Shown: positions 5,379-59,821 of the stretch, in pieces
Layout of the letters: the number at the start of each line of letters is the position of its first letter
Numbering within the stretch: position 1 is the first letter of the stretch
Made by a program: the position numbers and the translations under genes
Notes under the pieces: model-generated
The model's input: only the letters and a program-made list of their open reading frames with translations
Told to the model about the DNA's origin: nothing
The model's database searches: none
Assembly: GCA_963716745.1 (NCBI GenBank)
Contig: OY970320.1
Span: forward strand, 2,592,001-2,656,000
Length of the DNA stretch: 64,000 bases
Reading direction: 5' to 3'
Source of the DNA: an uncultured Gemmatimonadaceae bacterium
Lineage (GTDB): Bacteria; Gemmatimonadota; Gemmatimonadetes; Gemmatimonadales; Gemmatimonadaceae

Positions 5379-5409
5379 AATGTCGAGCGCCAGCGGTGCA
5401 GTGATCCAG

Positions 5410-5482
<73 letters not shown>

Positions 5483-16675: not shown

Positions 16676-16680
16676 TGCAG

Positions 16681-17965
16681 TCAGTCGAGCAGCTCGCCCA
16701 CCATTTTCGCGCTCCGCTCCGCCGCTCCCAGCCCTGATCGTACCATCTCCCGCGCCGCATTCCCCGCGCGCTCGCACTCATCCGGATCGGCAAGCCACTT
16801 CGTGAGCAGTACGCCGAGCGCGTGCGCATCCTGCGCGCTCGCTCCTCCTCCGCACGCGATCAATAGCCCCGCATCGCGGCTCATCGCGAATTGCGGACCG
16901 AACGCCACCGGCGCGCCGAACGCCGCGGGCTCCAGTACCGAGTGCAGCCCCGCGGCGTGGAACCCTCCGCCCACGAGCGCCGCCGCGGCGAGCGCGTACA
17001 ACTCGCCGAGCACGCCCACGCGATCGACGATCACGACGTCGGCCTCGCGCGCGTGGCCGGCGCCGAGGCGTGCCCAGCGTGAGACCCTGCTCGGCCGCCG
17101 AGCGCTCGAGCGGCTCGAGGTGCGCGGCGGTCGGTTCGTGCGGCGCGATGATGAGACGCGCCGCCGGCACGCGCGATCGTACCGCGGTCCATGCGGCGAA
17201 GAGCGCCCGTTCGTCGGCCGGCCACGTCGAACCCGCCACGAGCGTGGGCCGCGGCGACGCGAGCGGCGCGAGCAATGCCCCGTGACGGTCCGCAGCCGCG
17301 GCGCGCGCCCACACTTGATCGTACCGCGTATCGCCGGTCACGCGCACGCGGTTGGCCCGGGCGCCGAGCGCCGCGAGGCCGATCGCGTCGCGCTCATCGA
17401 TCGCGCCGATCGCATCCAGCTGCGCGTACGCATCCCCGAGCACCGCGCGCGCGAATGGCGAGCGGCGTCCCGACGTATCGCTCAGCGTCGCACTAATGAG
17501 GGCGAGCCGCACCGCGCGCGCGGCGGCCTCGCGCGTGAGCGCCGGCCACACGTCGAGTTTGCTGAATACGAGCGCACGCGGGCGCAGCGCATCGAGCATC
17601 GCGCGCGCATCGGCCGCGCGATCGAACGGCAGGTAGTCGGCGGCGTCCACATCCAGCGAGCGCGCGAACGATTCCGCGCTCGGCGAGAAGAATGTGTACG
17701 CGATCTGCGTCGCGGGCCGCTCGCGCCGGATGCGTTCGATCACCGGCCGCGCCTGCAGACCTTCGCCCACCGAGGGTGCGTGCACCCAGAGCAACGGACG
17801 CGCCGGATCGCGGTGCGCGGTGGCCCACTGTGTCCACCGGCCAACGAGGCCGTGACGCGCCGCGAACGTGCGCTGGGTCTTGCTCCCGCCGGCCGGCGCG
17901 ATGTGAGCCCCGAGCTGGGCCGCACGCGCGGCCCCCTCGTACAATAGCGCGACCAGCTTGTGCAC
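16681..17965 (-). CDS. waaA: 3-deoxy-D-manno-octulosonic acid (Kdo) transferase, with one frameshift near 17073
   Basis: LWVHAPSVGE, YLPFD, TGDTRYD, LVAGSTW, IIAPHEP in one frame; DRVGVLGELY...VGGGF...VLEPAAFGAPV in another. Removing one base of the G run (CCC 17073-17075) joins them. Confidence 0.88.
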
Positions 17966-20226: not shown

Positions 20227-23200
20227 ATGGGACGTCTTGTCAAGTCAGTTCTCGCGATCGTGTGCGCACTGATCGCGTTGCCCGCTCTGGCGGCAGCGCA
20301 GGAAGGCGCGACGATCAGTGGGCGCGTGACGAGTGAGGCCGGTGCACCACTGAATTCCGCCAACGTGTTCCTCGAAGGCATGAACATCGGAACGCTGGCG
20401 AAGGAAGATGGCCGGTACACGTTCGTCGTGCCCGCAGCCCGCGTGAAGGGGCAGCAGGTGACCGTGACCGCACGCTTGATCGGGTATCGCGCGAAGTCGG
20501 CGACGATCACCCTCGCGGCCGGTGCGATCACGCAGGATTTCGTGTTGGCGACCAATCCGCTCCGCCTCGGCGAAGTGGTGGTCACGGGTGCTGGTACGAC
20601 GACCACCGTCGGCAAGCTGGGCGTCGTGATCAACCAGGTCGATTCGACCGCGATCAGCAACTCCAACGAGTACAACATCGTGAACGCGCTCGCGGCGAAG
20701 GCCCCGAACGTGAAGATCACGAACCAGGCCGGTGACCCGGGCTCGTCTTCCTACATCCAGATCCGCGGCCTCCGGTCGCTGTCTGGTTCGGGACAGCCGC
20801 TGTTCGTCGTCGACGGCACGCCGATCGACAACTCGACGATCTCCACCACGGCGATGACGGGCGGCACGGTGGCCCCGAACCGCGCGGCGGACATCGATCC
20901 GAACGACATCGAATCGGTGGACATTCTGAAGGGTTCGGCGGCGGCCGCGATCTACGGTGCGGCGGCGTCGGACGGTGCGATCCTGATCACGACCAAGACC
21001 GGTAAGTCCGGCGCGACGCGCTTCAGCTTCAACACGCAGCTGCAGCTCAACGACGTGAGCCATGATGTCCCGCTCCAGACGGATTGGGCGCAGGGCAATG
21101 GCGGCGTGACGGATCCGTGCTCCGTGAACCTGACGACGGGCTGCTCGGCGACCAGCATCTCGTACGGCGCGCAGCTCGCGGCGGGCACACAGACGTACAA
21201 TCACTACACCGATCTGTTCCGTGAGGGCGATCAGTGGAACAACAACCTGACGCTGTCGGGCGGCAACGACAAGACGACGTACTTCTTGTCGATGGGCTAC
21301 TCGAACACGCAGGGTGTTATCACGGGCCCGAACAACTGGTACGATCAGTACAATCTGCGCGTCAAGGCGTCGCAGCGGCTGGCTGACCGCGTGGTGGTCA
21401 GCGGCAACATCGCGTACGTCGACACGCACGGCTCGTTCATCCAGCGCGGCTCGAACGTGTCCGGTCTGTTGCTCGGCGGGCTGCGCACGCCGCCGGCGTT
21501 CAACAACCAGCCGTTCCTCGACACGCTGACGGGCCTGCAGCGTTCCTACCGGCATCCGGCGTACTGGCCGGGTTCGCAGGTGTCGTCGCGTGGTTACGAC
21601 AACCCGTTCTTCGTGCTGAACGAGGATCCGGCGACGTCGCAGCTCAACCGCGCGTTCGGCAACGTCGCGATCGATTGGGAAGTGAACGACTGGCTCTCGC
21701 TCAAGGACAACCTGGGTGGGGACTACTACAACGACCAGCGCACGGAAGCGTTGGCGCAGTCGTCGTCCGGCTTCCCGACCGGTTCCGTCACGATCGGCAA
21801 CAACTCGATCTACAGCATCGACAATTACCTCACGGCGACCGGCACGCACACGTTCAGCCCGAACTTCAGCGGTTCGCTGACGCTCGGAACGGACGCGCAG
21901 TCGCAGAGCGTGACGCAGAACTTCACGACCGGCCAGACTCTGGTCGCGCCGACGCCGTACGCGCTCACGAACACGGTCGTCTACGTGCCGGCGACGTTCA
22001 ATTCGCTGATCCATTCGCTCTCGTACTATGCGCATGCGACGGCGGACCTGTACAACCAGCTGTACGTCACGCTCGGTATGCGCCGCGACGGGTTCTCGAC
22101 GTTCGGTGAGAGCGAGCCGTATGCGTGGTATCCGCAGGCCAACGTGGCGTGGACCTTCACGAACGCGCTGGGCAACACGGAGCAGAAGGGTGTGCTGAGC
22201 TTCGGCAAGCTGCGTGTGGGTTACGGCGAGACGGGCAAGCCGCCCGCTCCGTATTCCACGCAGACCGTGCTGGCGGCCGGCGCGTCGAGCTTCTTCGGCT
22301 CCGGCTACGGCGACCTGCTCCTCGGGACGCAGAACGGCAAGGGCGGTCTGTTGACCGGTGGCAATCTCGGCAACAACAACATCCTGCCCGAGCGTGAGAA
22401 GGAACTGGAGGCCGGTGTGGACTTCGGCTTCTTCAATCAGACGGTCGATGCCGGTATCACGTGGTACAAGGAGAACTCGACGGACGTCATTCAGGCGCTG
22501 CCGATTCCGCCTTCCACCGGCTTCTTCGGCGCGCTGTCGAACGCCGCGGCGATCGAGAACAAGGGCTTTGAAGTGACGGCGAACTGGCGTCCGCTGACCA
22601 CCGCGAAGACGTCGCTCGAGTTCGGTGTCACCTGGGGTCAGAACTTCACGGTCGCCACGAACCTGGGCGGCGCGCAGTTCTACTATATCGCCGGCGGCAC
22701 GTTCACCGGCGCGGTGGCCGCGATGTATCTCAACAACGGCCTCGTGATGCAGGGACAGGACTTCATCCGTTGCGGCAAGGGCCTGGGCGACACGGACACC
22801 ACAGGGGGCGCGAACAGCCCCGCGGCGGCTTGCAATGGCGCGCCGAAGAACGCGTTGTACATCGATTCGAACGGCTTCCCGGTCACGGATCCGAACCAGC
22901 AGATCATCGCGAATCCGAATCCGAACTGGATCGGTGGGTTCCACGGCTCCATGCGCTTCGACAAGCTGACCGTCACCTTCCTGGTGGACCACAAGCAGGG
23001 CGGCCAGGTGTGGAACGGAACGCAGGGCGCGTTGGAGTACTTCGGCACGCACAAGATCACGGACATTCGCAATACGAACCAGGTCTTCGGTTCGGCTGGC
23101 TGGTTCCCGGGTGCCGTTGTTGGTCCGGGCGCGGGCATGCCGGTGCTGATCGATCAGGATTGGTTCGAAGGCGACGGTTCAGGCTTCAGCGGTCCGTCGG

Positions 23201-23466
23201 CTCAGAACGTGGAAGACGGCACGTACACGAAGCTCCGCGAGATCGGGGTGCAGTACACCTTCTCCGGTCGCTGGGTCACGCACAATCTCGGTCTGTCGAG
23301 CGTGGACCTTCGCGTCGCTGGTCGCAACCTGTACACCTGGACGAACTACACGGGTGTTGATCCCGAGACGAACCTCGCGGGAGCCGGTGCCACGTTCCAG
23401 GGCGTCGACTACTTCAACACCCCGCAGACCAGGTCGTTCGTTCTGTCCATCGGCCTGAACCGCTAG
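20227..23466 (+). CDS. SusC/RagA family TonB-dependent outer-membrane receptor
   Basis: CarboxypepD_reg-like N-domain, plug QPLFVVDG...DIDPNDIESVDILKGSAAAAIYG, C-terminal GRNLYTWTNYTGVDPE; AGGAGG RBS. Confidence 0.95.
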   Translation: MGRLVKSVLAIVCALIALPALAAAQEGATISGRVTSEAGAPLNSANVFLEGMNIGTLAKEDGRYTFVVPAARVKGQQVTVTARLIGYRAKSATITLAAGAITQDFVLATNPLRLGEVVVTGAGTTTTVGKLGVVINQVDSTAISNSNEYNIVNALAAKAPNVKITNQAGDPGSSSYIQIRGLRSLSGSGQPLFVVDGTPIDNSTISTTAMTGGTVAPNRAADIDPNDIESVDILKGSAAAAIYGAAASDGAILITTKTGKSGATRFSFNTQLQLNDVSHDVPLQTDWAQGNGGVTDPCSVNLTTGCSATSISYGAQLAAGTQTYNHYTDLFREGDQWNNNLTLSGGNDKTTYFLSMGYSNTQGVITGPNNWYDQYNLRVKASQRLADRVVVSGNIAYVDTHGSFIQRGSNVSGLLLGGLRTPPAFNNQPFLDTLTGLQRSYRHPAYWPGSQVSSRGYDNPFFVLNEDPATSQLNRAFGNVAIDWEVNDWLSLKDNLGGDYYNDQRTEALAQSSSGFPTGSVTIGNNSIYSIDNYLTATGTHTFSPNFSGSLTLGTDAQSQSVTQNFTTGQTLVAPTPYALTNTVVYVPATFNSLIHSLSYYAHATADLYNQLYVTLGMRRDGFSTFGESEPYAWYPQANVAWTFTNALGNTEQKGVLSFGKLRVGYGETGKPPAPYSTQTVLAAGASSFFGSGYGDLLLGTQNGKGGLLTGGNLGNNNILPEREKELEAGVDFGFFNQTVDAGITWYKENSTDVIQALPIPPSTGFFGALSNAAAIENKGFEVTANWRPLTTAKTSLEFGVTWGQNFTVATNLGGAQFYYIAGGTFTGAVAAMYLNNGLVMQGQDFIRCGKGLGDTDTTGGANSPAAACNGAPKNALYIDSNGFPVTDPNQQIIANPNPNWIGGFHGSMRFDKLTVTFLVDHKQGGQVWNGTQGALEYFGTHKITDIRNTNQVFGSAGWFPGAVVGPGAGMPVLIDQDWFEGDGSGFSGPSAQNVEDGTYTKLREIGVQYTFSGRWVTHNLGLSSVDLRVAGRNLYTWTNYTGVDPETNLAGAGATFQGVDYFNTPQTRSFVLSIGLNR

Positions 23467-36944: not shown

Positions 36945-37899
36945 ATGAACAAGCCGCCTTCGCGCCCGCCCGAGATCCGCAAGCGTGTGGACGAGGTCTC
37001 GTTCACGCGCAACATGCGATTCGAGATCGCCGACGCCGAAGGGCGCGCGCTCCTGTGGAGTTATGTGCTCGCCGGATCCATGGGCCTCATCTGGCTGCTC
37101 ATGGTGTGGTTCGGTCCATCGTCGCAGTCGCTGATCAGCCTGCTGCCGCCGGAGGAGACGCCGGTGGAAGTGAAGTTCGAATGACGCGAAGCCGGCGCCG
37201 ACGCCGACCGCCGCGCCTGTGGCGGCGCCTGCGGCGGCGGCTCCCGCGCCCAAGCCCGCCGGCGGCAATGAAGGGCAGAATCAGAAGAACATCAAGAAGA
37301 TGGGCGACGCGTTCGGCGGCGCCTCGAAGGGCGGCGGCGGGATGGTGGGCAATGTGACCAACGCGCTGCGCGGCGTGGACGTGAGTTCCTCCACCGGTGG
37401 CTCGCCCGGCATGCAGGGGAAAGCGGTGATCGGCTACGGCCAGGGCGGACAGGGATCGCGCACGCCCGGACGCGGCGGACTCGGCACCGGACTGGGCACC
37501 GGCGGCGGCGGGATTGGCGGCGTCGGCGGCACGGGCGTCGGATACTCCGGCGTGCTCGTCGCCGCGCCGCAGGTGATCCACGCGACCAACGCGGGCGGCC
37601 CCGGGCGTAACACGTCCGACCTCGGCAATTACGTGCGCGGCCGCGACTCGCAGCTCCGGTTCTGCTATGAGGAATACGGACTGAAGGTGAACCCGAGCCT
37701 CGCCGGATCCGTCACGGCGGCGGTGACCCTCACCGGCCAGGGGAACGTGACCGACGTCGCGATCAGCGACCGCACGTGGAGCGGCGCCGGATCATCGGAA
37801 GCAGAGAATTGCATCAAGCAGCGGATTTCGGGATGGAGGTTCCCGCCGTCCGAAGCAGGGGGCGGGACGTACTCCTTCAGCTTCTCCTTCTCCAAGTAA
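36945..37899 (+). CDS. TonB-like protein with AgmX/PglI-type C-terminal domain, frameshift near 37180
   Basis: N-terminal TM, Pro/Ala and Gly-rich linkers, QLRFCYEEYGLKVNPSLAGSV...GNVTDV...CIKQRISGWRFP. Removing one A at 37180-37181 gives FDDAKPAP and joins the ORFs. Confidence 0.8.
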
Positions 37900-38080
37900 C
37901 TACGAACGGCGTGAGTACCGAGTCGTGCGTGTTGGAGCACGCACGGCGTGAGTACGGAGTCGTGCGTATTGGACCACTGACGGCGTGAGTACCGACTCGG
38001 TATTCACGCCGTTCGCGATACGGACGACTCGGTCCTCGCGCCGTTGCGTGGTCGAACACGTACGACTCGGTACTCACGCG
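37900..38080. repeat. Large imperfect palindrome of 37-bp tandem units (copy B)
   Basis: Units start at 37906, 37943 and 37980 (ACGGCGTGAGTACCGAGTCGTGCGTG..), followed by inverted units ending CGACTCGGTACTCACGCG; fills the whole gap between convergent stop codons. Confidence 0.9.
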
Positions 38081-38081
38081 G

Positions 38082-38681
38082 TTAGTTGTTGATCGCGAGC
38101 GTATCCACCTTGTCCGCGCCGATCTCGACTCTCTTGGGAGTACCGAGTGCCTCCCCCCGTGCGCCGAGCGTCACAATGTACCATGTGCCCGTCGTCAGCG
38201 AGAACGACGCCCGTTCGTTCACGATCTTCTCGCGCGCGAGCGTCCGGCCCGCGGCGGTCGCTTCTTTCGTGAGTTCCTCAATGTCGAGTGCGCGCACCGG
38301 TCCGGCGTGGAGGCGCAGGCTGTCGCGTCGCATCCGGAGACTCTCGGCGCTCGCGGCGTCGCGCGTGAACGCCGCGTATGCCAATGCATATCCCGGCGTC
38401 CGGCGGTCCGTGCGATCCATGGAATCGGCGCGCGCATTGAGCACCGTGCGCACGCGCCGGTACACCGCGTTGAGCGAATCCGCCGAATGACGCGCCGGAT
38501 CGTTCACGATGAGCAGGGCGGGGTCCACCGGGGTCGCGAGGACTTCCACGCCTCCGGGCACGGTGGTAGAATCCAGCACCACGCGCAGGGTGCCGCTGCG
38601 CGCGCAGGCGATCGCGGCGAGAGCCAGGGCGGGGGCGGCGCGCCGCAGTCTTCCAATGAGGGCGCACACTGAGTGTGGCAT
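38082..38681 (-). CDS. Hypothetical lipoprotein
   Basis: LALAAIAC lipobox-like sequence in the 3' part of the long minus ORF; start uncertain. Confidence 0.55.
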   Translation of the reverse strand: MPHSVCALIGRLRRAAPALALAAIACARSGTLRVVLDSTTVPGGVEVLATPVDPALLIVNDPARHSADSLNAVYRRVRTVLNARADSMDRTDRRTPGYALAYAAFTRDAASAESLRMRRDSLRLHAGPVRALDIEELTKEATAAGRTLAREKIVNERASFSLTTGTWYIVTLGARGEALGTPKRVEIGADKVDTLAINN

Positions 38682-40675: not shown

Positions 40676-40726
40676 CACGCACGACTCACGTCTCACGACT
40701 AACGCCTGCACGCACGACTCACGCCT
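40676..40726. repeat. Heptamer-type repeat (ACGACTC)n upstream of lemA
   Basis: cacgcacgactcacgtctcacgactaacgcctgcacgcacgactcacgcc. Confidence 0.75.
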
Positions 40727-41396: not shown

Positions 41397-41450
41397 AGGC
41401 GTGAGTCGTGAGTCGTGCGTGAAGGCGTGACGCGAGAGTCGTTCGTGAGA
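41397..41450. repeat. Heptamer-type repeat (GAGTCGT)n downstream of lemA, inverted relative to the upstream copy
   Basis: ggcgtgagtcgtgagtcgtgcgtgaaggcgtgacgcgagagtcgttcgtga. Confidence 0.75.
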
Positions 41451-42278: not shown

Positions 42279-45200
42279 ATGAAGTGGCGAGTTCTGTCAG
42301 CGCTCGCGGTGCTTGCGCTGCTGCCCCTCGCGGCGGCGGCGCAACAAGAAGGGCTGATCACCGGCAAGGTGACCAGCGATGCCGGAGCTCCGGTGGCCGG
42401 CGCCCAGGTGTACATCGAGAAGATGAACCTCGGCACGCAGACGAAGGACGACGGCACGTACCGCATCGTGATCCCCGCCGGCCGCGCGAACAGCCAGCAG
42501 GCGTCGTTGAGCGTGAAGCTGATCGGGTTCAAGCCGAAGTCCGTGCTCATCGCGCTCAAGCCCACCACGCAGACCATGGACTTCGTGCTCGGCGCGCAGG
42601 CCGTGGTGCTGCAGCAGGTCGTGATCACCGGTGAAGGGATCATGACCACGAACGAGAAGCTCGGTGAGACCGTGAACACCGTGCACGCGGACGCGATCAC
42701 CGGATCCAACGAGACGAACGTGACCAACGCACTCTCGGGCAAGGCGCCGAACGTGCAAGTGCAATCGTCCTCGGGCGATCCGGGATCCTCCACATCGATC
42801 CAGATCCGCGGCCTCAAGTCCTTCACCGGCGACGGCCAGCCGCTGTTCGTCGTGGACGGCGTGCCGCTCGACAATTCGTCGGTGAGCACGGACCAGTACG
42901 CCATAGGCAATCAGGGGCAGGGCGTGGTCACGTCGAACCGCATTGCCGACGTCAATCCGAACGATATCGAATCGGTGACGATCCTGAAGGGCGCCGCGGC
43001 CGCCGCGATCTACGGCGCGCGTGCGTCGCAGGGCGTGGTGCTGATCACCACGAAGAGCGGCAAGTCGGGTCAGACGCGCTATTCGTTCACGAGCTCACTC
43101 TCGCTGAACGACGTCACCCAGGGTTACCCGTTGCAGACCACGTACGGGCTGGGCACGGACGGCGTGGCGGCGACCTGCGATGCCACGTCACTCCCGGGCA
43201 GCACCGACGGCGGCAGCGACTGCTCGATGAGCACCGCACGTTCATGGGGCCCGGCGCTGCCGGCCGGCACGACGACGTACGATCACTTCGGTGAGATGTT
43301 CACCACCGGTACGCTGTGGGACAACATCCTGTCGATGTCGGGCGGCGATGACCGCCGCAGCTTCTACTTCTCGGCGGGATACTCGGCGAACGCGGGCGAC
43401 GTGACCGGCAATCAGAACGACTACAACCGCGCGACCTTCAAGCTGAAGGGCTCGCAGATGATCGCCGACCAGATGCAGATCTCGGCGAACTTCAACTACG
43501 TGAACGTCACCGGCAATTTCATCCAGCGTGGCGACAACGTGGACGGCATCATGCTGGGCTCGCTGCGCACACCCGCGAACTTCAACAACTTCTACTACCT
43601 CGACAGCGCGTCCGGACTGCAGCGGGCGTTCCGGTATCCGAATCCGAGCGCCTTCTCCAGCACGACCGGCCGTGGATTCGATAACCCGATCTGGGTGGCG
43701 AATTCGATGCCGGCGACGCAGGACCTGAACCGCTTCTACGGCAACTTCATGTTCAACTGGACGCCGCAGGATTATCTGACCGTCCAGTGGACGCCGGGCG
43801 TCGACTACTACGCCGACCAGCGTTTGGAAGCGTTCCCGCTGACTTCCTCGGGATTCCCGACAGGGCAGATCTTCCGCACCGACATGAACAGCTTCATCGT
43901 GTCGAGCCTGCTGACGATCATCGGGTCGCATACGTTCAACCCGAACTTCTCGGGCACGATCACGCTGGGCAACGATCTCAACAGCCAGTCGTTCAACCAG
44001 AATTTCATTCAGGGCTTCACGCTCATTTCACCGCTTCCCTACACGATCAGCAACACCGTGAGCTGGTTCCCGAACGACGATGAGACGCTGGTGCACCGCC
44101 AGTCGTACTTCGCACAGGCGACCGCAGACCTGTGGGACCAGCTCTACCTCACCGCCGCGATCCGCAACGACGGCTTCTCGACCTTCGCCCAGAACGATCC
44201 GCGGGCGTGGTACCCGAAGGCGAGCGCGGCGTGGACGTTCACCAAGACCACGGGCACCCGCGACTGGCTCCAGTACGGCAAGTTGCGCGCGGCATACGGC
44301 GAGACGGGCAAGGAACCGCAGGCCTACTCGACCCTCAACAATTATCAGGTGAACAAGATCTACGAGTACGGCGGTGTCGGGTTCCTCAATAGCGTGTACG
44401 AGGGGATCCCGGGACTCACGTCTTCCACGAAACTCGGCAACGATGGGCTGCAGCCGGAGCGCTCGAAAGAGTGGGAGACGGGTTTCGACCTGGGCTTCTT
44501 CAATGGCATGTCGGACATGAGCTTCTCGTACTACAACAGCAAGACGTACGACGTGATCTTCCAGGTGCCGCTGCCTCCCTCGAGCGGTTACCAGAGCCAA
44601 GTGCAGAACGGCGCGACGATCTCGAACAAGGGCTACGAGGTCCAGTGGAACTTCAATTCCAAGCCGCAGGCGAATATGCAGTGGTCGCTTGGCCTGCTCT
44701 GGGCGCAGAACCGGAACAACGTCGATGCCATCCACAACGCATTCGATCGTCTTCCTGCCCAACTCCATCGTGAACGCGGTCGCGATCGTCGGGTCGCCCG
44801 TGGGTTCGATCTACGGATATGACTTCTATCGCTGCGGCAAGGGCGAGACCGTCGCCAATGTCGACATCGACAACACGCCGACGTCGGGTGGCGGCTGCGG
44901 TACGGGCTACGCCAAGAACGCCATGTATATCGGCGCCGATGGCTTCCCGATCATCAATACCGATTCGAACATCCCGCTGGGCAGCGCCCAGCCGAACTGG
45001 ACGGGCGCGATCCGCGGTTCCCTCACGCCGATCAAGAACCTCCAGTTCTCGTTCCTGTTCGACATTCGCAATGGGAGCCAGGCCTACAACGGCACCCGCG
45101 GCGCGCTGTACGTGTATGGCACGCACAGAGACACCGATGTTCGCGGCCAGAACCTGATCTTCGGCACGTCGATCGATCCGGGCGCAGTCGCCGGACCGGG

Positions 45201-45534
45201 CGCCGGGCAGGCCGTACTCATCGACGCGAACTGGTTCCAGGGAGACGGCGGGTCGTTCGGCAACAACACCGCCAGCTTCGTGGAAGACGCCGGATTCACC
45301 AAGCTCCGCGAGATCGCCCTCGCTTACACCTGGGATGGCCGCTGGGTGACGCACAACCTTGGCCTGAGCAGCCTTCAGCTGCGCGTCGCCGGCCGAAACC
45401 TGTACACATGGACCAAGTACACCGGCATCGACCCCGAATTCAATCTCGAGGGCGTAGCGCTGGTGCAGGGTGTGGACTGGTTCAGCAATCCGCAGGCGCG
45501 TTCGTTCGTGATGTCCATCACCCTCAACCGCTAA
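42279..45534 (+). CDS. SusC/RagA family TonB-dependent receptor (second copy), frameshift near 44742
   Basis: Collinear with 20227-23466 (plug QPLFVVDG, NPNDIESVTILKGAAAAAIYG, GRNLYTWTKYTGIDPE); removing one T joins ORFs 42219-44822 and 44689-45534. Confidence 0.92.
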
Positions 45535-47081: not shown

Positions 47082-47342
47082 CGAACGGCGTGAGTCGAAC
47101 CCCGAACACCGTGACTCGTAACCCTGACGCCGTGAGTGCCGAGTCGTGCGTCGTACTGACTGTGATGCGTGTGTGGTACCCCGAACTCCGTGCGTCGCGC
47201 CCCGAACGCCGTGAGTGACTCACGACGCACGGAGTTCAGGGGTGCGAGTCACGCCGTACAGTCAGTACGACGCACGACTCGGTACTCACGGTGTTCGGGG
47301 TACGACGAACGGCGTTGGGGGTACGACTCACGCCGTTCGTAG
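47082..47342. repeat. Large imperfect palindrome with 21-bp subunits (copy C)
   Basis: Arms of ~120 bp; begins CGAACGGCGTGAGTCG, ends CGACTCACGCCGTTCGTAG; shares GAGT(A/G)CCGAGTCGTGCGT with copies A and B. Confidence 0.9.
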
Positions 47343-48372: not shown

Positions 48373-49041
48373 TTATTGGTACAGCGCCGGGAATTCCTTC
48401 TTCAGCGCCTCGACCTTCGGAATGTCGTTGTACACGATGTACGGCTGGTCGGGGTGCTTATCGAGGTATCCCTGATGATAGTCCTCCGCCTTGTAGAACT
48501 TCTTCAGCGGAGTGACCTCCGTCACGATCTTGCCGCTGAACGTCTTTGCGGCCGTGAGCTGCGCAATGTAGGCCTTCGCGACACTCTCCTGCTCGGGCGT
48601 CATGTAGAAGATCGCCGAGCGGTACTGCGTGCCGTGGTCGGGGCCCTGGTAGTTGAGTTCAGTGGGATTGTGCGCGACCGAGAAGAACACCTTGAGCAGA
48701 TCGCCGTAGGTGACTTGGCTCGGATCGTAGATGACCTGCACCGATTCCGCGTGGCCCGTGGTGCCCGTGCTCACCGTCTCATAGTCGGCCGTGCCCGCTT
48801 CGCCGCCGGCGTAGCCGGAGGTGGAGGAGATCACGCCCTTCACATGCTCGAACACCGCCTGGATCCCCCAGAAGCAGCCGCCGGCGAAGACAGCCGTGTC
48901 GCGGCCGGGGGCTGTGGTCAGCGCGGTATTCTTTTCAGGATCGGGGACGGGAACGGTCGCGCCGGCTACTCCACAGCCCATGGCGAGGGCGAGGGGGAGC
49001 ATGGCAAACATCATGAGGAAATGAGGGAGGGTGGTACGCAT
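48373..49041 (-). CDS. msrA: Peptide-methionine (S)-S-oxide reductase MsrA with export signal
   Basis: FAGGCFWG, GYAGG, TGHAE, QGPDHGTQYRS, AEDYHQ; hydrophobic N-terminus. Confidence 0.95.
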   Translation of the reverse strand: MRTTLPHFLMMFAMLPLALAMGCGVAGATVPVPDPEKNTALTTAPGRDTAVFAGGCFWGIQAVFEHVKGVISSTSGYAGGEAGTADYETVSTGTTGHAESVQVIYDPSQVTYGDLLKVFFSVAHNPTELNYQGPDHGTQYRSAIFYMTPEQESVAKAYIAQLTAAKTFSGKIVTEVTPLKKFYKAEDYHQGYLDKHPDQPYIVYNDIPKVEALKKEFPALYQ

Positions 49042-49110
49042 CTTAATGATCCTCGGAATTGATGGTCGACTGCATTGTATCAACACTTCTCGAGTGGGGC
49101 GAGTTCCGAC

Positions 49111-49789
49111 TTACCGCTAACGGCGGGGTTGGTACCGCTAACGGCGTGTGTGGCGTTGGCGTTGGGAATGCGAGCGCCGGTCAGACCGCGAAATGCCTCT
49201 CAACGCAGAAACATGGTGCCAGAACGCTCATTGCTCAGCGATATCATTGGCTCCTCGCGTAAAGCGGAGGAGCCGGTTGAGCTACGCAGCGTGGGAGTCG
49301 TCAATTCCCGCCGAAGTGCGCGCGGATCCGCTCTGGGGACTGCGGGTGTACCGTGCGGCCCTTTATGCGGGTGATCTCGGGCGCCGCGAGCATGCTGGCT
49401 TGCGCGAAAACCCGGGTTCGCAGACCTTGCCCCGCAATTGGTGCGCGCGACCGGATCGATCAGCGCGAACATCGCCGAAGGATACGGCCGCAATGGCCGC
49501 AAGGATCGCCTGCGATTCTACTGCTTACGCGCTCGGTTCTGCTCGTGAATCGCGCGACTGGTACTACAAGGCACGCGACGCGCTCGGCGCACCGCGCTAC
49601 ACAAGCTCGCATGTCGCTCCACACGTCGATCATTCGCATCATGACCAAGCTTCTGCGCAAGCCGAGCGCCGTCGCACCGCCAGAGCCAGAACAGGCCGAC
49701 TCCTGATCGCAGTCCCCAACGCCAACGCTAGACACGAATCTTGCGGTTCCAACCCCGCCGTCAGCGGTACCAGTCCCGCCGTCAGCGGT
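49111..49789. mobile_element. Putative insertion element: four-helix-bundle gene flanked by inverted repeats of 21-bp units
   Basis: Left end 49111-49173 (ACCGCTAACGGCGGGGTTGGT, repeated in part, then GTGTGTGGCGTTGGCGTTGGG) matches the reverse complement of 49707-49789; interrupts the co-oriented msrB-msrA pair. Mobility is inferred, not shown. Confidence 0.55.
49277..49706 (+). pseudogene. Four helix bundle protein (23S rRNA IVP / Avd-like family), at least three frameshifts (pseudogene or sequencing errors)
   Basis: GGAGG plus TTG start; stitched frames give LSYAAWESSIPAEVRADPLWGLRVYRAALY / DLAPQLVRATGSISANIAEGYGRNGRKDRLRFY / YALGSARESRDWYYKARDALG / RMSLHTSIIRIMTKLL. QxxRAxxSIxxNIAEG and ALGSaxE are family hallmarks. 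Confidence 0.8.
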
Positions 49790-50404
49790 CAGGCAGTAGC
49801 GAGCTTCACGAACTTCAGCGCCACTGAATTAATGCAGTACCTCAACCCAGTCGGCTTCGGCCCGTCTTCGAATACATGCCCTTGATGCCCATCACATCGC
49901 TTGCACTTGATCTCCGCCAGCGCACCATAGCCGGTGTACGGCGTCTCCAGCACATTCTCTTTCGCGATCGGCTGCCAGAAGCTCGGCCATCCGGTGCCCG
50001 AATCGAACTTGTTGGCGGAGCTGAACAGCGCGGTATCGCAATCGAATGCACCGGTAGATCCCGACATCCTTGAATTCGTCGTACTGCCCCGTGAACGCGC
50101 GCTCGGTGCCTTCCTGCCGTGTGACAATGTACGACTCGGGCGAGAGCTGCGTGCGCCACTCGGCGTCGGTTTTCACCACCTTCGGTACCTTTTTCGCGCC
50201 GAGGTTCTTGCCGTCGGCGCCGAATTCGACGATCAGCACGTCGGTCATTGGAGTGATCTCGGTCTCGGTCATGGTCTGGGCGGGGATCCGGCGGCGGAAC
50301 GCCGCGAGCATCGCGGTGGCCGCCAGCACGCCGCCAGCCGCGAGGAACGCGCGGCGCGTGGAGGGAGCGAACTTGGGGTCGCTCCCCTGATCGGGATTGG
50401 TCAT
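49789..50404 (-). CDS. msrB: Peptide-methionine (R)-S-oxide reductase MsrB with Tat signal, frameshift near 50046
   Basis: STRRAFL twin-arginine signal; [38 protein letters not shown]; removing one base gives YRCIDCDTALF. Confidence 0.92.
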
Positions 50405-50503
50405 CGTTGTGTTGGATGGTGGTCTTGGTACGCCATATGAATACATACGCTCGCCGCAGGTTCCCGGATTGACAACCTCCGAAATCCCTCCGACATCATA
50501 GCA

Positions 50504-51736
50504 ATGCATACCCCACTTCGCGTCCTAGCGGTAGTTGGCCTTTGGACCCTTTCGACGGTCTCGGCTTCCACGGCCCAAGCGCCGCATGCGACAGCCGACA
50601 GCCGACAGCCTGCAGTCGTAGTTCTCGCTTTCGACGGTTTCGCCCGGCGGTATTTGGATCAGGATTCTGCGCCTACGTTCCATATGCTTGCGCGAGAAGG
50701 GGTGCTCGCCGAGGCGATGATCCCGAGCTTCCCGACGCTCACCTTTCCCAATTTCTACACTCTGGCGACGGGATTGTACCCGGCGCATACGGGGATCGTG
50801 AACAACCGGTTCTGGGACCCATCGTTCAATGCCATGTTCATCTATACCGGCGCGATGGCGAAGGAGGCGCGGTGGTGGGGCGGGGAACCGATCTGGGCCA
50901 CGGCGCAGAAACAGGGGTTGCGCAGCGCTTCGATGTTCTGGGTGGGCAGCGAAGCACCGATCGGCGGGGTCCAGCCGACGATATTCGTCCCGTTCGACAC
51001 GCGAATCCAGTTCGAGTCGCGCATCGTGCAGATCCTGAGTTGGCTGTCGCTACCGGATTCGGTGCGGCCACACCTCATCATGGGCTACTTCGAGGAGCCC
51101 GATCACACGGGGCACTCGTTCGGCCCCGACGCGCCCGAGACCGCCGCGCAGGTGCTGCGCGCCGACAGCATGCTCGCGATGTTCGTGAATGGACTTCGCG
51201 CGCGCGGCCTCTACGACAAGGTGAATCTCATCGTGGTGGCCGATCACGGCATGTCGGCCGTATCGAAGGATCGCGTGATCTACCTGGACGACGTGGTCGA
51301 TTCCGCCAGCGTGCGCGTGGTCGGCGAGACGTCGCCGGTGCTCACGATCAGCGCGCGCGACGGGAACGACTCAGCGCTCGTGCGCCAGCTGCGAAAGCTT
51401 CCCCACCTTACCGTTTGGCCGCGCGACAGCATCCCGGCTCGGCTCCATTTCTGCTGCAATCAGCGAATCACCGCAGTAGTGGCCGTGACCGACGACGGCT
51501 GGAGCATCACGTGGCGGCACGCCAAACCATCGAAATTGGGCGGCGCGCATGGATACGATAACGCGGACCCGAATATGCGAGCGCTTTTCATTGCGCACGG
51601 GCCGGCGTTCAAGCCGGGGACGACGATCCCCGCGTTCGAGAACGTGAACGTGTACTCATTGCTGGCCGATCTGCTGGGAGTGAAGCCCGCGCCGAATGAC
51701 GGCAGTTTGGCGCCATTTGCTGCGGTGCTGAAGTAG
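50504..51736 (+). CDS. Alkaline phosphatase superfamily, nucleotide pyrophosphatase/phosphodiesterase (ENPP-like)
   Basis: LAFDGF, PTLTFPNFYTLATGLYP, WWGGEPIW, EPDHTGH, ADHGM, GAHGYD. Confidence 0.93.
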   Translation: MHTPLRVLAVVGLWTLSTVSASTAQAPHATADSRQPAVVVLAFDGFARRYLDQDSAPTFHMLAREGVLAEAMIPSFPTLTFPNFYTLATGLYPAHTGIVNNRFWDPSFNAMFIYTGAMAKEARWWGGEPIWATAQKQGLRSASMFWVGSEAPIGGVQPTIFVPFDTRIQFESRIVQILSWLSLPDSVRPHLIMGYFEEPDHTGHSFGPDAPETAAQVLRADSMLAMFVNGLRARGLYDKVNLIVVADHGMSAVSKDRVIYLDDVVDSASVRVVGETSPVLTISARDGNDSALVRQLRKLPHLTVWPRDSIPARLHFCCNQRITAVVAVTDDGWSITWRHAKPSKLGGAHGYDNADPNMRALFIAHGPAFKPGTTIPAFENVNVYSLLADLLGVKPAPNDGSLAPFAAVLK

Positions 51737-51797
51737 GGCTGTGTTTGATTGTTGACAAAATCTATCGGGATACCGATCTTGAGGCGCGAACGGTAGG

Positions 51798-51812
51798 TGA
51801 AAGCCATTCTCA
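51798..51812. promoter_or_regulatory. Possible Fur-type 7-1-7 operator
   Basis: TGAAAGC-C-ATTCTCA versus TGATAAT-n-ATTATCA; AT-rich context, TTGACA at 51752, upstream of a heme oxygenase gene. Confidence 0.4.
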
Positions 51813-51823
51813 TCTAAGCGCTC

Positions 51824-51934
51824 ATGCGGAAGCTGACCAGGAACCTGTCCATCGTCGCGTTCCTGCTCTTTCTGCTCAAGGGGCTGATCTGGCTAGCCCT
51901 GCCTGCGCTTCTCGCCATGAAAGGGTGTCCTTGA
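51824..51934 (+). CDS. Small membrane protein, 36 aa (not in ORF track)
   Basis: MRKLTRNLSIVAFLLFLLKGLIWLALPALLAMKGCP; its stop overlaps the TTG start of the next gene (TTGA). Confidence 0.6.
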   Translation: MRKLTRNLSIVAFLLFLLKGLIWLALPALLAMKGCP

Positions 51935-52559
51935 GCGACCAGACCGCTGTCCCCGCCTTGTCGTCGGCCCTCGCGCTCCGTGAACGCACTCAACCCACCA
52001 TAAGAACGCAGAGCAGTCCGAGTTCCAGCGACAGTTCGTGAGCGGCAAACTCGAGACGGCCGGCTACATCGGCTGGTTGGGGCAGATGTGGTTCGTCTAC
52101 CGCGCAATGGCGGCGCAATTCAGCGCGCGACCCGGGAAGTCGGCCATTTTCTCTGCTGAGCGCGACCGGACAGCGGACCTCGACGCCGATCTGACGTTCT
52201 TTGGGCTTCCGGCCAAGGCGCGCGAGGCGTTGCCGAGCACAAGGGCGTTCATTGGGTTGCTCGCGCAATGGGGCGCGGCCGAAGGCAACGAGTTGTTGGG
52301 TCCCTTGTATGTGCTGGAAGGGAGCACCAACGGTAGCAAGTTCATCGCGCGCGCGGTGCGAAAGGCGTATTTCCTCGAGGGCTCGCAGGGCACAAGATTT
52401 CTGGACCCATATGGCGACGAGCAGACCGCGAAGTGACAGGCGTTCCGCGCGGAGCTGGACTCAGGCGTCGCCGCCGATCAGGTGGATGCGGTGATCGAAT
52501 CCGCGAAGGCGACCTTCGACGCGGTGACTGCGATCGGCGTGGAGCTGCTCGCGCGCTAG
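51931..52559 (+). pseudogene. Biliverdin-producing heme oxygenase, with a frameshift near 51995 and an in-frame TGA at 52434
   Basis: LRERTQ/HHKNAEQSEF (proximal His), LDADLTFFG, LYVLEGSTNG, then AK*QAFRAELD...AKATFDAV continuing in frame to TAG 52559. Confidence 0.8.
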
Positions 52560-52575
52560 ACTAGGGCGGATCTGC

Positions 52576-54085
52576 CTAGGCGGCGGGCTCCGGCTTCGGG
52601 AACAGCGCGTCGCCCTTCTTCACTCGCCAGCCCTTCGGCTCGATGAGTTTGCCGAGTGATCCGGGTTCGTCCGCGCGCCCCGGCGCGCCGAGTTGCTTCC
52701 AGAGCTCGGCGGACTTCTCGGGGATGAACGGCGAGATGCATCGCGCGACGCTCGCGATCACGTAGATCAGCGTCGCGAGTGTTTCCTCCAGCTCGGCGCG
52801 CTTCGCGGGATCCTTCGCGAGTTTCCAGGGCGCCTGCTGGTCGACGTACTGGTTCATCGCGGCCACGCGCGCGAGGAGATTCGCGAGACCTTCGTGCAGC
52901 ATGAGGCCGTCCATCGCGGCGTCGTAGTGCTCGAAGCTCCGCTTGGCGTTCACGGGCACGACGCCGTCGCAGTACTTCTCGACCATCGCGATGGTGCGGC
53001 TCGCGAGATTGCCGAGCGCGTTCGCGAGGTCGGCGTTGTAGCGGTCGTCGAAGCGCTCCCAGCTGAAATTGCCGTCGGTGTCGAACGGCACTTCGCGCAT
53101 CAGGAAATAGCGGAACGCGTCGGCGCCGTACTTGTCGATCGCCTCGCCCAGGTCGAGCTTCACGCCGCTGCTCTTCGAGAACTTCTCGCCGGCGAGCTGC
53201 ACGAAGCCGTGCGCCCAGACTCTCTCAGGCAGCGGAAGGCCGGCGGCCATGAGCATCGCGGGCCAGATCACACAATGGAAACGCGTGATGTCCTTGCCGA
53301 TGACGTGCAACTGCGCCGGCCAGCGGTTCTCGAAGCCGGCATCGGGGAAACCGGTGCCGGTGAGATAGTTCGGCAGCGCGTCGAACCAGACGTACACGGT
53401 CTGTTTGTCGCCGTCGCTCGTAGGGCGGGGGAAGGGCACGCCCCATTTCAGTCGCGAACGGCTCGCCGAGATGTCGTCGAGTCCGCCGCGTAGCAGCGCG
53501 AGGATCTCGTTACGGCGGCTCTCAGGCTGCACGAACTCGGGATGCTGCTCGAATGTGCGCGAGCACGCGCGCGGTGTACGCGCTCAACTTGAAGAACCAG
53601 TTCTTCTCCTCCACCCACTCCAGCGTGAGCGTGGGATGGAGCATGCACTTCCCGTCCTTGATCTCGGCGTCCTGCTTGAAGCTCTCGCAGCCCACGCAAT
53701 AATTGCCCGCGTACGCCTTCTCGTAGAAATCGCCGGGATTGGTCTGGAAGATCCGCTCGATGAGCGCCTGCACGCCGCTCACGTGCGCGGGCGCGGTGGT
53801 GCGAACGAACTGATCGTTCGAGATGTTGAGCCGCTTCCACATCTCCTGGAAAATTTCGGCGATGCGATCGGTCTGCTGCTGGGGCGAAACGCCCGCAGCC
53901 GCGGCGGCCTGCTCCACCTTCTGGCCGTGCTCGTCCATCCCAATGAGCAGCCACACGTCGTCACCCTTCAGCCGGCGATAACGCGCGATCACATCGGCGG
54001 CGATCTTCTCGTACGCGTGCCCAATGTGGGGCTCGCCGTTGGAATAATCGATCGCGGTGGTGAGGTAGAACCTGCGAGGGGCCAC
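52576..54085 (-). CDS. metG: Methionine--tRNA ligase (short form), frameshift near 53552
   Basis: FYLTTAIDY, PHIGH, GMDEHGQK, YVWFDAL, IGKDITRFH, KFSKS; removing one base joins the two ORFs. Confidence 0.93.
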
Positions 54086-54090
54086 GCGGA

Positions 54091-55164
54091 CTACGACGCG
54101 GAAGGCGGGCTGCTCGGGCCCGACGATCCACCGCCGCCCTCGCGGCGGCCGCCGCGACGCCCGCGGCGGCGGCGGCGGGGGGCTTCGGATGACGGCGAAC
54201 TGCTGGCTGTCGGCTGTCGGCTGTCGGTGACTGCCGAGCGAGGCTCATCCTCGAGGATCGATTCGCCGTCGACGACGATCGCGTGCGTGCCGGTGTCTTC
54301 GCGCTCCTCTTCGACGACGGCAGGCTGCGAGACGCCGGCGATCTCCGCTTTGTATTCCACGAGCGTGATGATCCGCGTTTCGCCTTCGGCGTTCCGCAGC
54401 GTCACCCGATCGTTGAAAATATCATTCAGCACGATCTTCTCTTCGCCGAGCGCGGTCGTGACGACCTTCCCTTCTTTCGGGAATCGCTTGCGCGCGGCGG
54501 CGTAGAATTCGTGCTCGTAGCGCAGGCAGCACATGAGACGCCCGCACGCGCCGCTGATCTGGCTTGGATTGAGCGACAGCTTCTGATCCTTCGCCGCCTG
54601 CAGGTTCACGGGACGCAGATCGGGCAGCCAGCTCGCCGAGCAATAATCGCGGCCGCAGCGGCCAATGCCGCCGAGCCGCTTCGCCTCGTCGCGCACACCG
54701 ATCTGCTTGAGTTCGATCCGGGTGCGGAACAGTCCTGCGAGATCGCGCACGAGCGCGCGGAAGTCCACGCGCTTCTCAGCCGTGAAATACAGCGTGATCT
54801 TGCGCTTGTCCCACTGCCACTCGGCGTCGCTGATCTTCATCTGCAGCTTGTGCTCGCGCACGCGCTCGGCAGCCTTGCGACGCGCCTCCTCATCGAGCGC
54901 GCGGAGCTCGGCGTGCTTGCGCTCGTCCTCGCCGCTGGCGGTGCGCAGGATCTTGTGGCTCGGCGTAGCGGTGGCGCCGAGTCCGTGCGCGCAGCCGGCG
55001 CAGCGCTTCTCGGCGGCCTCGCCGGTGGCGTGCACCTTGCCGAGATCCTCGCCGCGATCGACCTCCACGATCACGCTGGCGCGTGTCGCGAGAGGAGATT
55101 CGCCCTCCCAGAGGAAGAATTCCTTGCGGTTGCCTTTAAAGGCGACTTCGGTGAGGTGTGGCAC
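54091..55164 (-). CDS. PSP1 domain protein (RicT/YaaT family)
   Basis: YFTAEKRVDFRALV, RIELKQIGVRDEAKRLGGIGRCGRDYC, ISGACGRLMCCLRYE. Confidence 0.93.
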   Translation of the reverse strand: MPHLTEVAFKGNRKEFFLWEGESPLATRASVIVEVDRGEDLGKVHATGEAAEKRCAGCAHGLGATATPSHKILRTASGEDERKHAELRALDEEARRKAAERVREHKLQMKISDAEWQWDKRKITLYFTAEKRVDFRALVRDLAGLFRTRIELKQIGVRDEAKRLGGIGRCGRDYCSASWLPDLRPVNLQAAKDQKLSLNPSQISGACGRLMCCLRYEHEFYAAARKRFPKEGKVVTTALGEEKIVLNDIFNDRVTLRNAEGETRIITLVEYKAEIAGVSQPAVVEEEREDTGTHAIVVDGESILEDEPRSAVTDSRQPTASSSPSSEAPRRRRRGRRGGRREGGGGSSGPSSPPSAS

Positions 55165-55188
55165 CCCTACAATCTACTCGCTGAGGGC

Positions 55189-55350
55189 AGAGGGGCGGAA
55201 CTGGAACCGCGAGGGGCGGTGCTGGTACCGCTGAGAGGCGCGTGTGGCGTTGGCGTTGGGTCACTGCGGATCCCGCGGGGCTAGCGGTCGCCCAACGCCA
55301 ACGCTACACGCGCCTCTAGCGGTACCAGCACCGCGCCGTTCAGCGGTGCC
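55189..55350. repeat. Gene-less palindrome matching the ends of the four-helix-bundle element
   Basis: Arms 55216-55260 and 55291-55334 are near-perfect inverted; GGTACCGCTGAGAGGCGCGTGTGGCGTTGGCGTTGGG matches 49131-49166. Confidence 0.9.
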
Positions 55351-55367: not shown

Positions 55368-56330
55368 TTATTCCGTGACCATCCCCATTCGAAGGAATTT
55401 CTCCCTGCGCCGACGCACCAGTTTATCCGGCTTCACGCGGCGCAGATCATCCAACGCACTCGTCAGCGCGGCCTGCAGCGATTTTGCGGCGGTGGCTTGG
55501 TCGATGTGCGCGCCGCCGAGTGGCTCGGGAACGATCTCGTCGATCACGCCGAACTCGAGGAGATCGGTGGCCGTGATGCGCAGCGCCTTGGCGGCGCGCT
55601 CCTTCATCTCGACGCTCTTGCCGTCCTTCCACAGAATGGCGGCGCAGCCTTCCACGGTGATCACGGAGTAGATCGCGTTCTCGAGCATGAGCACGCGGTC
55701 GGCGACGCCGAGTGCGAGCGCGCCGCCGGAGCCACCCTCGCCGATCACGGTCGCGACGATCGGCACTTCGAGGCGGCTCATCTCCAGCAGATTGCGCGCG
55801 ATCGCTTCGGATTGTCCGCGCTCCTCGGCGCCGAGTCCGGCCCACGCGCCCGGCGTGTCAATGAGCGTGAGCACGGGCACTTGGAATTTCTCGGCGAGCT
55901 TCATGAGGCGCAGCGCTTTCCGGTAGCCCTCGGGGTGGGGCATGCCGAAGTTGCGCTTGAGATTCTCCTTGGTGTCGCGGCCGCGCTGGTGGCCGATGAC
56001 CATGACCGTCTCGCCGTCGAGCCGCGCCCAGCCGCCGACGATCGCGGGATCCTCGCGGAAGGCGCGGTCGCCATGCAGCTCGATGAAATCGGTGAAGGCG
56101 AGCGCGATGTAATCGAGCGTGAACGGCCGCTTGGAATTGCGCGCGACCTGCACGCGCTGCAGCGGCGAGAGGTTGCCGTAGACGATGCGGCGCAGTTCGT
56201 CGAGCTTCGCCGCGAGCGGCGCGATCTCGGCGTCCATGTTCACTTGGCCCTGCGCGCCGGTCTTCTTGAGCTCCTCGATCTGCTTCTCGAGCTCCAGGAT
56301 CGGCCGTTCGAACTCCATCGTCGAGCCCAT
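55368..56330 (-). CDS. accA: Acetyl-CoA carboxylase carboxyltransferase alpha
   Basis: ELHGDR, RNFGMPHPEGYRKALRLM, AEERGQSEAIA, GEGGSGGAL. Confidence 0.97.
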   Translation of the reverse strand: MGSTMEFERPILELEKQIEELKKTGAQGQVNMDAEIAPLAAKLDELRRIVYGNLSPLQRVQVARNSKRPFTLDYIALAFTDFIELHGDRAFREDPAIVGGWARLDGETVMVIGHQRGRDTKENLKRNFGMPHPEGYRKALRLMKLAEKFQVPVLTLIDTPGAWAGLGAEERGQSEAIARNLLEMSRLEVPIVATVIGEGGSGGALALGVADRVLMLENAIYSVITVEGCAAILWKDGKSVEMKERAAKALRITATDLLEFGVIDEIVPEPLGGAHIDQATAAKSLQAALTSALDDLRRVKPDKLVRRRREKFLRMGMVTE

Positions 56331-56331
56331 G

Positions 56332-59821
<3,490 letters not shown>

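Follow-up and report, generated by a model that had tools for sequence, protein, structure and literature searches.

Why does a gene for a small four-helix-bundle protein sit alone between inverted arms, when hairpins with the same arms and no gene are found elsewhere in the same genome? The question is raised by a stretch of 64,000 nt, hereafter the window, which corresponds to positions 2,592,001-2,656,000 of the forward strand of OY970320.1. It belongs to the genome of an uncultured Gemmatimonadaceae soil bacterium (GCA_963716745.1, a single contig of 3.29 Mb with 67% GC), which we refer to as G000. The gene, which we call the 4HB gene (for four-helix bundle; PF05635/TIGR02436), forms with its two arms a cassette between msrB and msrA. 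Hairpin families were named by their arms (E, H, D, G, and L022 type), and the cassette of the window belongs to family E. Our comparison set consists of six genomes of the genus, namely G000 and its relatives G001 to G005; the closest relative is G002, whose assembly is rated 63% complete.

As judged from the sequences compared, the takeover of the msrB-msrA site by an E cassette went along with a change of hairpin family throughout the G000 genome. The reading that we favour, with a probability of about 0.5, is that the protein encoded by the only gene-carrying copy of family E would bind the heptad-periodic arms that mark this family and keep the family going by having its hairpins copied over older ones at the same gene ends.

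A gene-carrying cassette and its gene-less relatives

The 4HB open reading frame (ORF) is bracketed, as the original prediction had it, by inverted arms composed of a 21-nt unit and an inner block. The arms at 49112-49166 and 49715-49769 (55 nt each, separated by 548 nt) are 84% complementary and pair with each other in the global fold (z = -6.6). Their units exceed what shuffled sequences yield: with up to 3 mismatches, ACCGCTRACGGCGGGRYTGGT is found 3 times in the window (49113, 49748, and 49769) and 0 times in 100 shuffles, while GCGTTGGCGTTGGG, with up to 1 mismatch, is found 4 times (49153, 49715, 55247, and 55291) against a shuffle mean of 0.05. An inner stem of the left arm also corresponds to the apical stem found in gene-less copies of subtype E1. 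The 4HB gene is the only gene encoded in the interior of the cassette, its stop codon (TGA, 49704-49706) abuts the right arm, and the far end of that arm overlaps the stop codon of msrB. The cassette had been described as splitting a co-oriented msrB-msrA pair in the opposite direction, which is the arrangement found, with both msr genes on the minus strand and the 4HB gene on the plus strand. Although proteins of this family are known from intervening sequences (IVSs) of 23S rRNA, the element is not inserted in a 23S rRNA gene and sits between msrB and msrA.

The second copy of the arms in the window, between accA and the PSP1 gene, does face itself across only 30 nt, measured between the inner blocks, and shares with the cassette a 44-nt arm at 86%. 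Folded as single-stranded DNA, this hairpin reaches -72.6 kcal/mol (z = -12.25), and the divergence of its outer 21-nt units from ACCGCTRACGGCGGGRYTGGT exceeds 3 mismatches. At the same site, family E is present in G000 and G002 and a variant, E', in G004 (where the E' cassettes are the loci L028 and L029); unrelated hairpins occupy it in G005 and G003, and none is present in G001, a genome too diverged at this point for a comparison of filled and empty sites, so that no target duplication can be defined.

The arms are by no means limited to these two places. Genome-wide, the E arms form 50 merged loci, of which two are the arms of the cassette and 48 are gene-less; 29 of these 48 are full hairpins of 91-157 nt. 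A search with the inner block (15-mer, up to 1 mismatch) gave 35 matches in G000 that form 15 pairs, with a start-to-start spacing of 563 nt in the cassette, 43-46 nt in 13 of the 15 pairs, and 27 nt in the pair 1204426/1204453. Family E has a single gene-carrying copy in G000, the element at 49111-49790. In this cassette the gene is adjoined on either side by an inner stem. The gene-less E1 copies retain that stem and, because both inner cassette ends are kept, they look like internal deletions of the cassette. The autonomous/non-autonomous pair that had been proposed thus holds insofar as gene-carrying and gene-less copies coexist; the copies amount to about 50 loci rather than two, and the cassette is no more than a candidate autonomous copy.

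These copies bear on an alternative in which the hairpins are turned over by the host machinery (hairpin cleavage and recombinational repair) or by an unrecognised enzyme, and the 4HB gene is a small passenger, selfish or neutral, that settles at the apex of hairpins, as in the IVSs of 23S rRNA, with no role in the spread of the repeats. We regard this alternative as unlikely, if the most serious of those weighed here. The retention of both inner cassette ends in the E1 copies argues that these derive from the cassette, and not that a gene entered a pre-existing hairpin.

Chance or artefact, that is, accidental GC-rich inverted matches or a misassembly of long metagenomic reads, would be another explanation, and the assembly does contain indel errors. 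An extra base at 50045, which splits msrB, is missing from a short-read contig and is therefore an assembly error; such indels lower the completeness score. Frameshifts also split metG (~53530) and dnaE (~57338), and gap openings relative to the G002 flanks amount to 2.45 per kb. Furthermore, 12-nt inverted matches are frequent in a genome of 67% GC, where 320 of 546 such loci could not be assigned to a family. Against this explanation stand the absence of the 21-nt units from the shuffles, the rarity of GCGTTGGCGTTGGG in them, and the fold score of the gene-less hairpin. Short-read contigs from other runs contain both arm regions as well, with 0 differences over the left-arm region (49011-49161, contig X3) and 2 over the right-arm region (49714-49864, contig X4), and the same families and cassettes recur in relatives that were assembled separately. 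We consider an artefact extremely improbable.

Table 1. Location of the family-E cassette, of its parts and neighbours, and of gene-less hairpins in the window.
Feature	Position	Strand	Basis or details
Family-E gene-carrying cassette (left arm, leader, 4HB gene, right arm)	49111-49790	+	repeat search and profile hits
Left arm, ~75 nt	49111-49185	+	21-nt units 49113-49133 and 49134-49154; inner block GGCGTTGGCGTTGGG 49152-49166
Leader, about 110 nt, left arm to start codon	49186-49276	+	
4HB gene (PF05635/TIGR02436)	49277-49706	+	profile scores; subtype with N-terminal extension
Right arm, ~84 nt	49707-49790	+	inner block 49715-49728; units 49748-49768 and 49769-49789
msrA (PMSR), left neighbour of the cassette	48373-49086	-	domain hit
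msrB (SelR), right neighbour of the cassette, in two frames	49789-50290	-	domain hit
Gene-less family-E hairpin between PSP1 and accA	55203-55345		arm match, fold, comparison with relatives
PSP1-domain gene beside the gene-less hairpin	54091-55164	-	domain hit
accA beside the gene-less hairpin	55368-56399	-	domain hit
Gene-less family-D hairpin	37899-38097		orthologous site in G002 (L052) holds a family-H hairpin

The last hairpin of the table is another case of switching in place, with H in G002 and D in G000. It is one of three further long intergenic hairpins of the window (16463-16681, 37899-38097, and 47082-47339), whose arms of 46-101 nt are 82-87% complementary and whose units of ~37 nt or 21 nt belong to sister families of the D type and the L022 type. 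Two more sequence types, TGTTAATCCTGTCCAATGC and TAGACCTAGACGCTAGA, form hairpins at C1:76931-77009, 117083-117140, 148713-148776, and 150472-150598 of G000 and match none of the arms of 4HB cassettes in the genus. Elsewhere in the window, two paralogous stretches (20731-23381 and 42774-45452) lie 22 kb apart with 72-76% identity and are probably duplicated large genes, and six tRNA genes are clustered on the minus strand at 4630-5482.

Exchange of hairpin families at conserved sites

A 4HB cassette occupies the msrB-msrA site in all four close genomes (G000, G002, G004, and G005), from which we conclude that the site itself is vertically inherited. The arms differ, being of family H in G002 and G004, an H-like variant in G005, and E in G000. 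The genes differ with them: identity between the E gene and the gene of G002 is 75%, and 80/86/57% at codon positions 1/2/3, while the adjacent msrA shows 97.5/97.9/85% between the same two genomes and the 4HB genes of G002 and G004 at this site are 92% identical. Since the codon-position identities of the 4HB gene are so far below those of msrA and retain the pattern of a selected gene, we conclude that in G000 alone the gene and its arms were exchanged together, from H to E, by a diverged lineage that was formerly under purifying selection. The leader of the E cassette is likewise homologous to, yet diverged from, the H-cassette leaders of G002 and G004. An origin of the E gene by decay of the H gene in situ was rejected on account of the codon-position pattern, and the import of a larger msr segment is unsupported, the identity of msrA to G002 being ordinary. 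Vertical inheritance of the cassette at one site, named beforehand as an observation that would count against a mobile element, is therefore found for the site in four of four genomes and not for the gene and arms, which were exchanged in G000. In other genera msrB does not lie beside msrA, so they offer no empty msr site for comparison.

The abundance of the two families also differs among the genomes. Inner blocks of H (up to 1 mismatch) number 1 in G000, 30 in G002, 14 in G004, and 6 in G005; those of E, at the same threshold, number 44 in G000 and 34 in G002, and each of the remaining four genomes has 4-8, against 0-2 for a reversed-pattern control. The counts follow the resident gene, with the exception of G002. 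The near-loss of H in the genome that lost the H cassette (1 block match against 30 and 14) and the purifying selection on the E gene (80/86/57%) are both difficult to reconcile with a gene that is mere cargo.

At the level of single sites the exchange can be followed directly, the flanks of the compared hairpins being ~94% identical between G000 and G002. Twenty H hairpins of G002 were fetched, and both flanks could be mapped into G000 for 19 of them; at these sites G000 has E in 10, D-type or G-type hairpins in 4, H in 1, and a truncated remnant or nothing in 4. In the opposite direction, both flanks of five of eight E loci of G000 were mapped to the fetched G002 stretches, three of which have H in G002 and two the same E copy. 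Taking both mapping directions together, 13 orthologous sites have H in G002 and E in G000. Five sites have H in both G002 and G004, and there G000 has E in two, a remnant in two, and H in one; as the two relatives agree, the switching took place in the G000 lineage. The D-type and G-type hairpins at 4 of the 19 sites indicate that replacement is not specific to one family, a point in favour of turnover by the host.

Of the 19 E hairpins fetched from G002, one is interrupted by the end of a contig and two are chance matches within coding sequence, which leaves 16 true ones. In G000, the positions of all 16 are likewise occupied by E hairpins; nine are near-identical and seven differ, and in four of these seven the subtype is E1 in G002 and E2 in G000. 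Blocks of E2 are matched 27 times in G000, 4 times in G002, and 0 times in the other genomes. Family E, and above all its subtype E2, looks recently active.

Two observations concern the make-up of the switched hairpins. The apical loops of gene-less H hairpins (in G002 and G004, for example L051, L054, and L057, and at C1:2768499-2768685 of G000) hold a single E-like unit, GGTACCAnCCCCGCC, which is missing from the H cassette; because of this difference, we take the gene-less H copies to be a lineage of their own or hybrids. An outermost inverted unit, AACGGCGTGnGT ... ACnCACGCCGTT, is common to many hairpins of families E, H, and D (L045, L050, and L057 among them, together with the corresponding hairpins of G000); it stays when the inner family switches and could be a common landing or homology site.

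The 4HB protein and its sister cassettes

The assignment of the gene to the IVS-protein family with an Avd-like fold is borne out by profile scores and, through its G002 homologue, by structure comparison. The in-frame piece 49387-49527 passes the cut-offs of both TIGR02436 (38.3 bits, cut-off 24) and PF05635 (35.3 bits, cut-off 33.8), and the homologue at the same site in G002 reaches 63.1 and 56.6 bits, respectively; in a six-frame scan of the genome with PF05635 the window gene obtained 32 bits, slightly below the cut-off. Reading the gene through its ~143 codons requires three 1-nt corrections (-1 near 49386, +1 near 49525, and +1 near 49590). Three or more gaps in 430 nt have a probability of 0.09 at the background rate between the assemblies of G000 and G002, and the six other 4HB genes of G000 have no frame breaks; the three breaks may be assembly errors. 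In contigs X1-X4, X6, X7, X10, and X14, the cassette interior (49181-49748) matched only short conserved motifs of other organisms' genes. The subtype of the window gene, with an N-terminal extension of ~45 residues, is common to copies D and G of G000 and to many relatives. In most 4HB cassette leaders of both subtypes (G000, L013-L044), a motif of the form GATG(R) or similar to TGATGA lies 35-85 nt ahead of the start codon; no consistent small upstream ORF was found in these leaders to account for it.

The structure was modelled for the G002 homologue, from an alignment of 14 sequences, and not for the broken reading of the window (pLDDT 93.2). The best solved match of this model is 2GSC (E = 2e-4, TM 0.81-0.85), together with 2RLD (TM 0.82-0.89), both of which are solved pentamers of the S23p family; the next matches are Avd (4DWL) and the complex of a diversity-generating retroelement (DGR; 8UB7 and 8UBE). 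The net charge of the 4HB proteins ranges from -1 to +14 and is positive in 37 of the 39 listed.

It had been remarked that no transposase or reverse transcriptase is visible in the window, and, for the profiles searched, this extends to the entire genome. Searches of the whole single-contig genome returned 0 matches for RVT_1 (PF00078), hence no reverse transcriptase accompanies the Avd-like gene, 0 for Y1_Tnp (PF01797), for which a control search was positive in 6 of 14 genomes, and 0 for rve and DDE_Tnp_1. Four tyrosine-recombinase loci were found, none of them near the cassette, and PDDEXK_3 was matched at three loci.

The association of gene and hairpin is not confined to the cassette of the window. 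All seven PF05635 matches of G000 lie between inverted arms 471-553 nt apart, and each of the seven genes has its own arm sequence, which recurs at 17-59 loci; the six other 4HB genes, whose lack of cognate flanking repeats would have spoken against the idea, all have them. The arms of 4HB cassettes have a period of 7 nt or 21 nt. Across the six genomes, such arms are present at 39 of 42 4HB loci, the exceptions being two loci cut by contig ends and one ambiguous case. Bracketing does not suffice to identify a cassette: strong inverted repeats of one family stand on both sides of 42 loci of 250-1500 nt, and neighbouring hairpin remnants can enclose an ordinary gene. An example in the window is a LemA-like gene flanked by inverted repeats of 39 nt (82%) that consist of ACGACTCACGCC-type units (40688-40726 and 41404-41442).

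All seven genes in G000 and 39 of the 42 in the genus lie in hairpins, each in its own family and with one gene per family, which is not what would be expected of cargo without a role in the spread. On the other side, no enzymatic activity is known for the 4HB fold, some families exist without a resident gene (the GGGACTC type at 24 loci and the L022 type at 11 in G000, and family E in G002), and the E gene of the window may be broken while E2 expanded.

A further alternative places the function at the RNA level: the hairpins, within transcripts at gene ends, would be RNase III sites, terminators, or stabilisers, and the 4HB protein an RNA-binding regulator of the transcripts that bear them, its own included. 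Hairpins do abut stop codons, as at msrB and the L047 site; Avd acts within an RNA-protein complex, according to the titles of PDB 8UB7 and 8UBE; and RNase III cuts the stems of the homologous ORF-bearing IVSs in Coxiella, as described in PMC4990558. The tests of this idea were weak or negative, as far as sequence can indicate an RNA-level constraint. The strand-specific excess of G-T over A-C mismatches per hairpin is not clear (346 against 319 +/- 19, P = 0.086). By a rough strand call, which misread PSP1, the flanking genes are convergent at 33 hairpins, tandem at 49, divergent at 21, and unclear at 69, so that divergent genes flank 21 of the 103 hairpins that could be classified. No sigma-70-like promoter or terminator-like site was scored in the cassette stretch 48950-49900, and an Rfam scan of the window found its six tRNAs and no family at the hairpins. 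An RNA regulon would also leave unexplained the wholesale switching of families in place between genomes with such similar flanks. We find this alternative quite improbable.

In the reading that we favour, namely a protein that sustains its own hairpin family, the basic, ring-forming bundle of the Avd/S23p type is predicted to recognise the periodic arms of the family to which it belongs, whose hairpins it would protect or promote. Replacement would proceed through templated repair or gene conversion at existing hairpins, carried out by host enzymes with no cut-and-paste step, and the resident family would be favoured in it.

Several results weigh against this reading. The complementarity of the arms within one copy is no higher than between copies, and no copy-specific compensation of arm changes was found; since the arms within a copy pair no better than those of different copies, there is no sign that selection preserves the structure copy by copy. 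No catalytic motif speaks for an activity of the 4HB protein. The hairpins of the GGGACTC type (~24 loci) and the L022 type (~11 loci) have no resident 4HB gene in G000, so the rule of one gene for one family is not strict, and G002, with its 34 E-block matches, has no E cassette among its 13 PF05635 matches, in an assembly 63% complete. The distance between proteins correlates with the similarity of the arms at r = 0.41 (the frameshifted E reading included), a correlation that physical linkage would by itself produce. The window gene has three frame breaks although subtype E2 looks recently active. Finally, no insertion into an empty site was seen at the hairpin sites compared, where all changes are replacements in place, and mobility in the usual sense is thus not demonstrated. 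The comparison of the msr and accA-PSP1 junctions with those of relatives, suggested with the original prediction, accordingly yielded neither an empty-site insertion nor a target duplication, and what it did show is that hairpins differ at the same sites.

Known systems and what the family may be

The closest parallel is the REPIN-RAYT system (PMC3116915 and PMC3337134), in which a gene present once in the genome has its own repeat on its flanks and tens of gene-less hairpins lie in intergenic regions; several families per genome, each with its own gene, and a mostly vertical inheritance are further points in common. According to the REPORTH preprint (10.1101/2024.10.14.618302), REPINs whose positions are conserved come to match the RAYT that predominates, and repeat switching toward the resident gene at conserved positions is also observed in the E/H system. 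The gene studied here, in contrast, encodes a four-helix bundle of ~135 residues unrelated to RAYT, which is a Y1/HUH transposase (PF01797 being missing from G000), it is located inside the hairpin loop, and its arms consist of units with a period of 7 nt or 21 nt. The behaviour matches that reported for REPIN-RAYT, with a non-enzymatic Avd/S23p-like protein.

The IVS of 23S rRNA in Coxiella burnetii shares with our cassette the protein family (S23p) and the anatomy of an element of ~430-680 nt whose complementary termini form a long stem, with an ORF in the loop (PMC4990558). That paper cites an older proposal that the ORF serves the mobility of the element, and presents the role of the ORF as a question some thirty years old. 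The E cassette differs in lying between protein-coding genes and in having dozens of gene-less relatives in the genome. Insertion sequences and their miniature inverted-repeat derivatives are comparable in their terminal inverted repeats and in having gene-less derivatives in which the two ends of the gene-carrying copy are retained; here, in contrast, Y1_Tnp, rve, and DDE_Tnp_1 are missing, and neither target-site duplication nor empty-site insertion was seen.

Avd is a basic protein that contacts nucleic acid. Its structures (4DWL, 8UB7, and 8UBE) resemble the model in their four-helix-bundle fold, with TM-scores of 0.69-0.74 normalised to the target, and the titles of 8UB7 and 8UBE place it in the ribonucleoprotein reverse-transcriptase complex of a DGR. 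The sequence identity is ~10%, 2GSC and 2RLD are closer, and RVT_1 has no match in G000.

A further parallel is provided by the GGGAATC/GGGGAYT heptamers of Xanthomonas and Nostoc, which PMC4692102 describes as abundant intergenic 7-nt tandem repeats, often in convergent inverted pairs, near stop codons and with positions conserved between species. A supplement of that paper has a GGGAATC repeat overlapping the start of XCC0516 of Xanthomonas campestris, the very protein of 2GSC, and the arms of one relative in our set (L039), CGGGAAT, are similar to this heptamer. The heptamers are read there as G-quadruplex formers and, in a search of the text of that paper, they appear not to be linked to a gene.

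The arrangement extends beyond the genus. Relatives of the window subtype are found at no fewer than 582 loci in the species collection, in Chloroflexota, Poribacteria, Bacteroidota, Planctomycetota, and others. Inverted arrays of ~7-nt repeats flank the gene in 38 of 58 loci of other phyla with full flanks, against 6 of 58 in a mismatched-locus control; at one locus in Poribacteria, the left arm and the stop codon of the gene upstream of it overlap. Our literature search, mostly outside subscription journals, found no published link between PF05635/TIGR02436 proteins and dispersed repeat families.

A wider proposal, which we put forward tentatively, is that four-helix-bundle proteins of the S23p/IVS type are the specificity subunits of widespread transposase-free repeats, selfish or domesticated, that overwrite rival hairpins and rival gene-carrying copies. 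Each protein ring would read a 7-nt-periodic arm, E would have overwritten the gene-carrying copy of H, and the heptamers of Xanthomonas and cyanobacteria, as well as the ORF-bearing IVSs of 23S rRNA, would find an explanation.

Proteins of PF05635/TIGR02436 are common, and their structures have been solved since 2006-2007 (2GSC and 2RLD); to our knowledge, no function has been assigned to them. On the practical side, hairpin repeats of this kind degrade long-read assemblies and gene calls, which is relevant to the annotation of genomes from metagenomes. The takeover of H by E between near-identical genomes is a natural experiment and offers the basis for a simple binding assay. If the protein is the family-specific factor of these hairpin repeats, there would be one testable answer to the function of the 4HB proteins, to the ORFs of IVSs, and to the heptamers of Xanthomonas and Nostoc, and, if this is true, REPIN-like populations of sequences within genomes would be run without a transposase.

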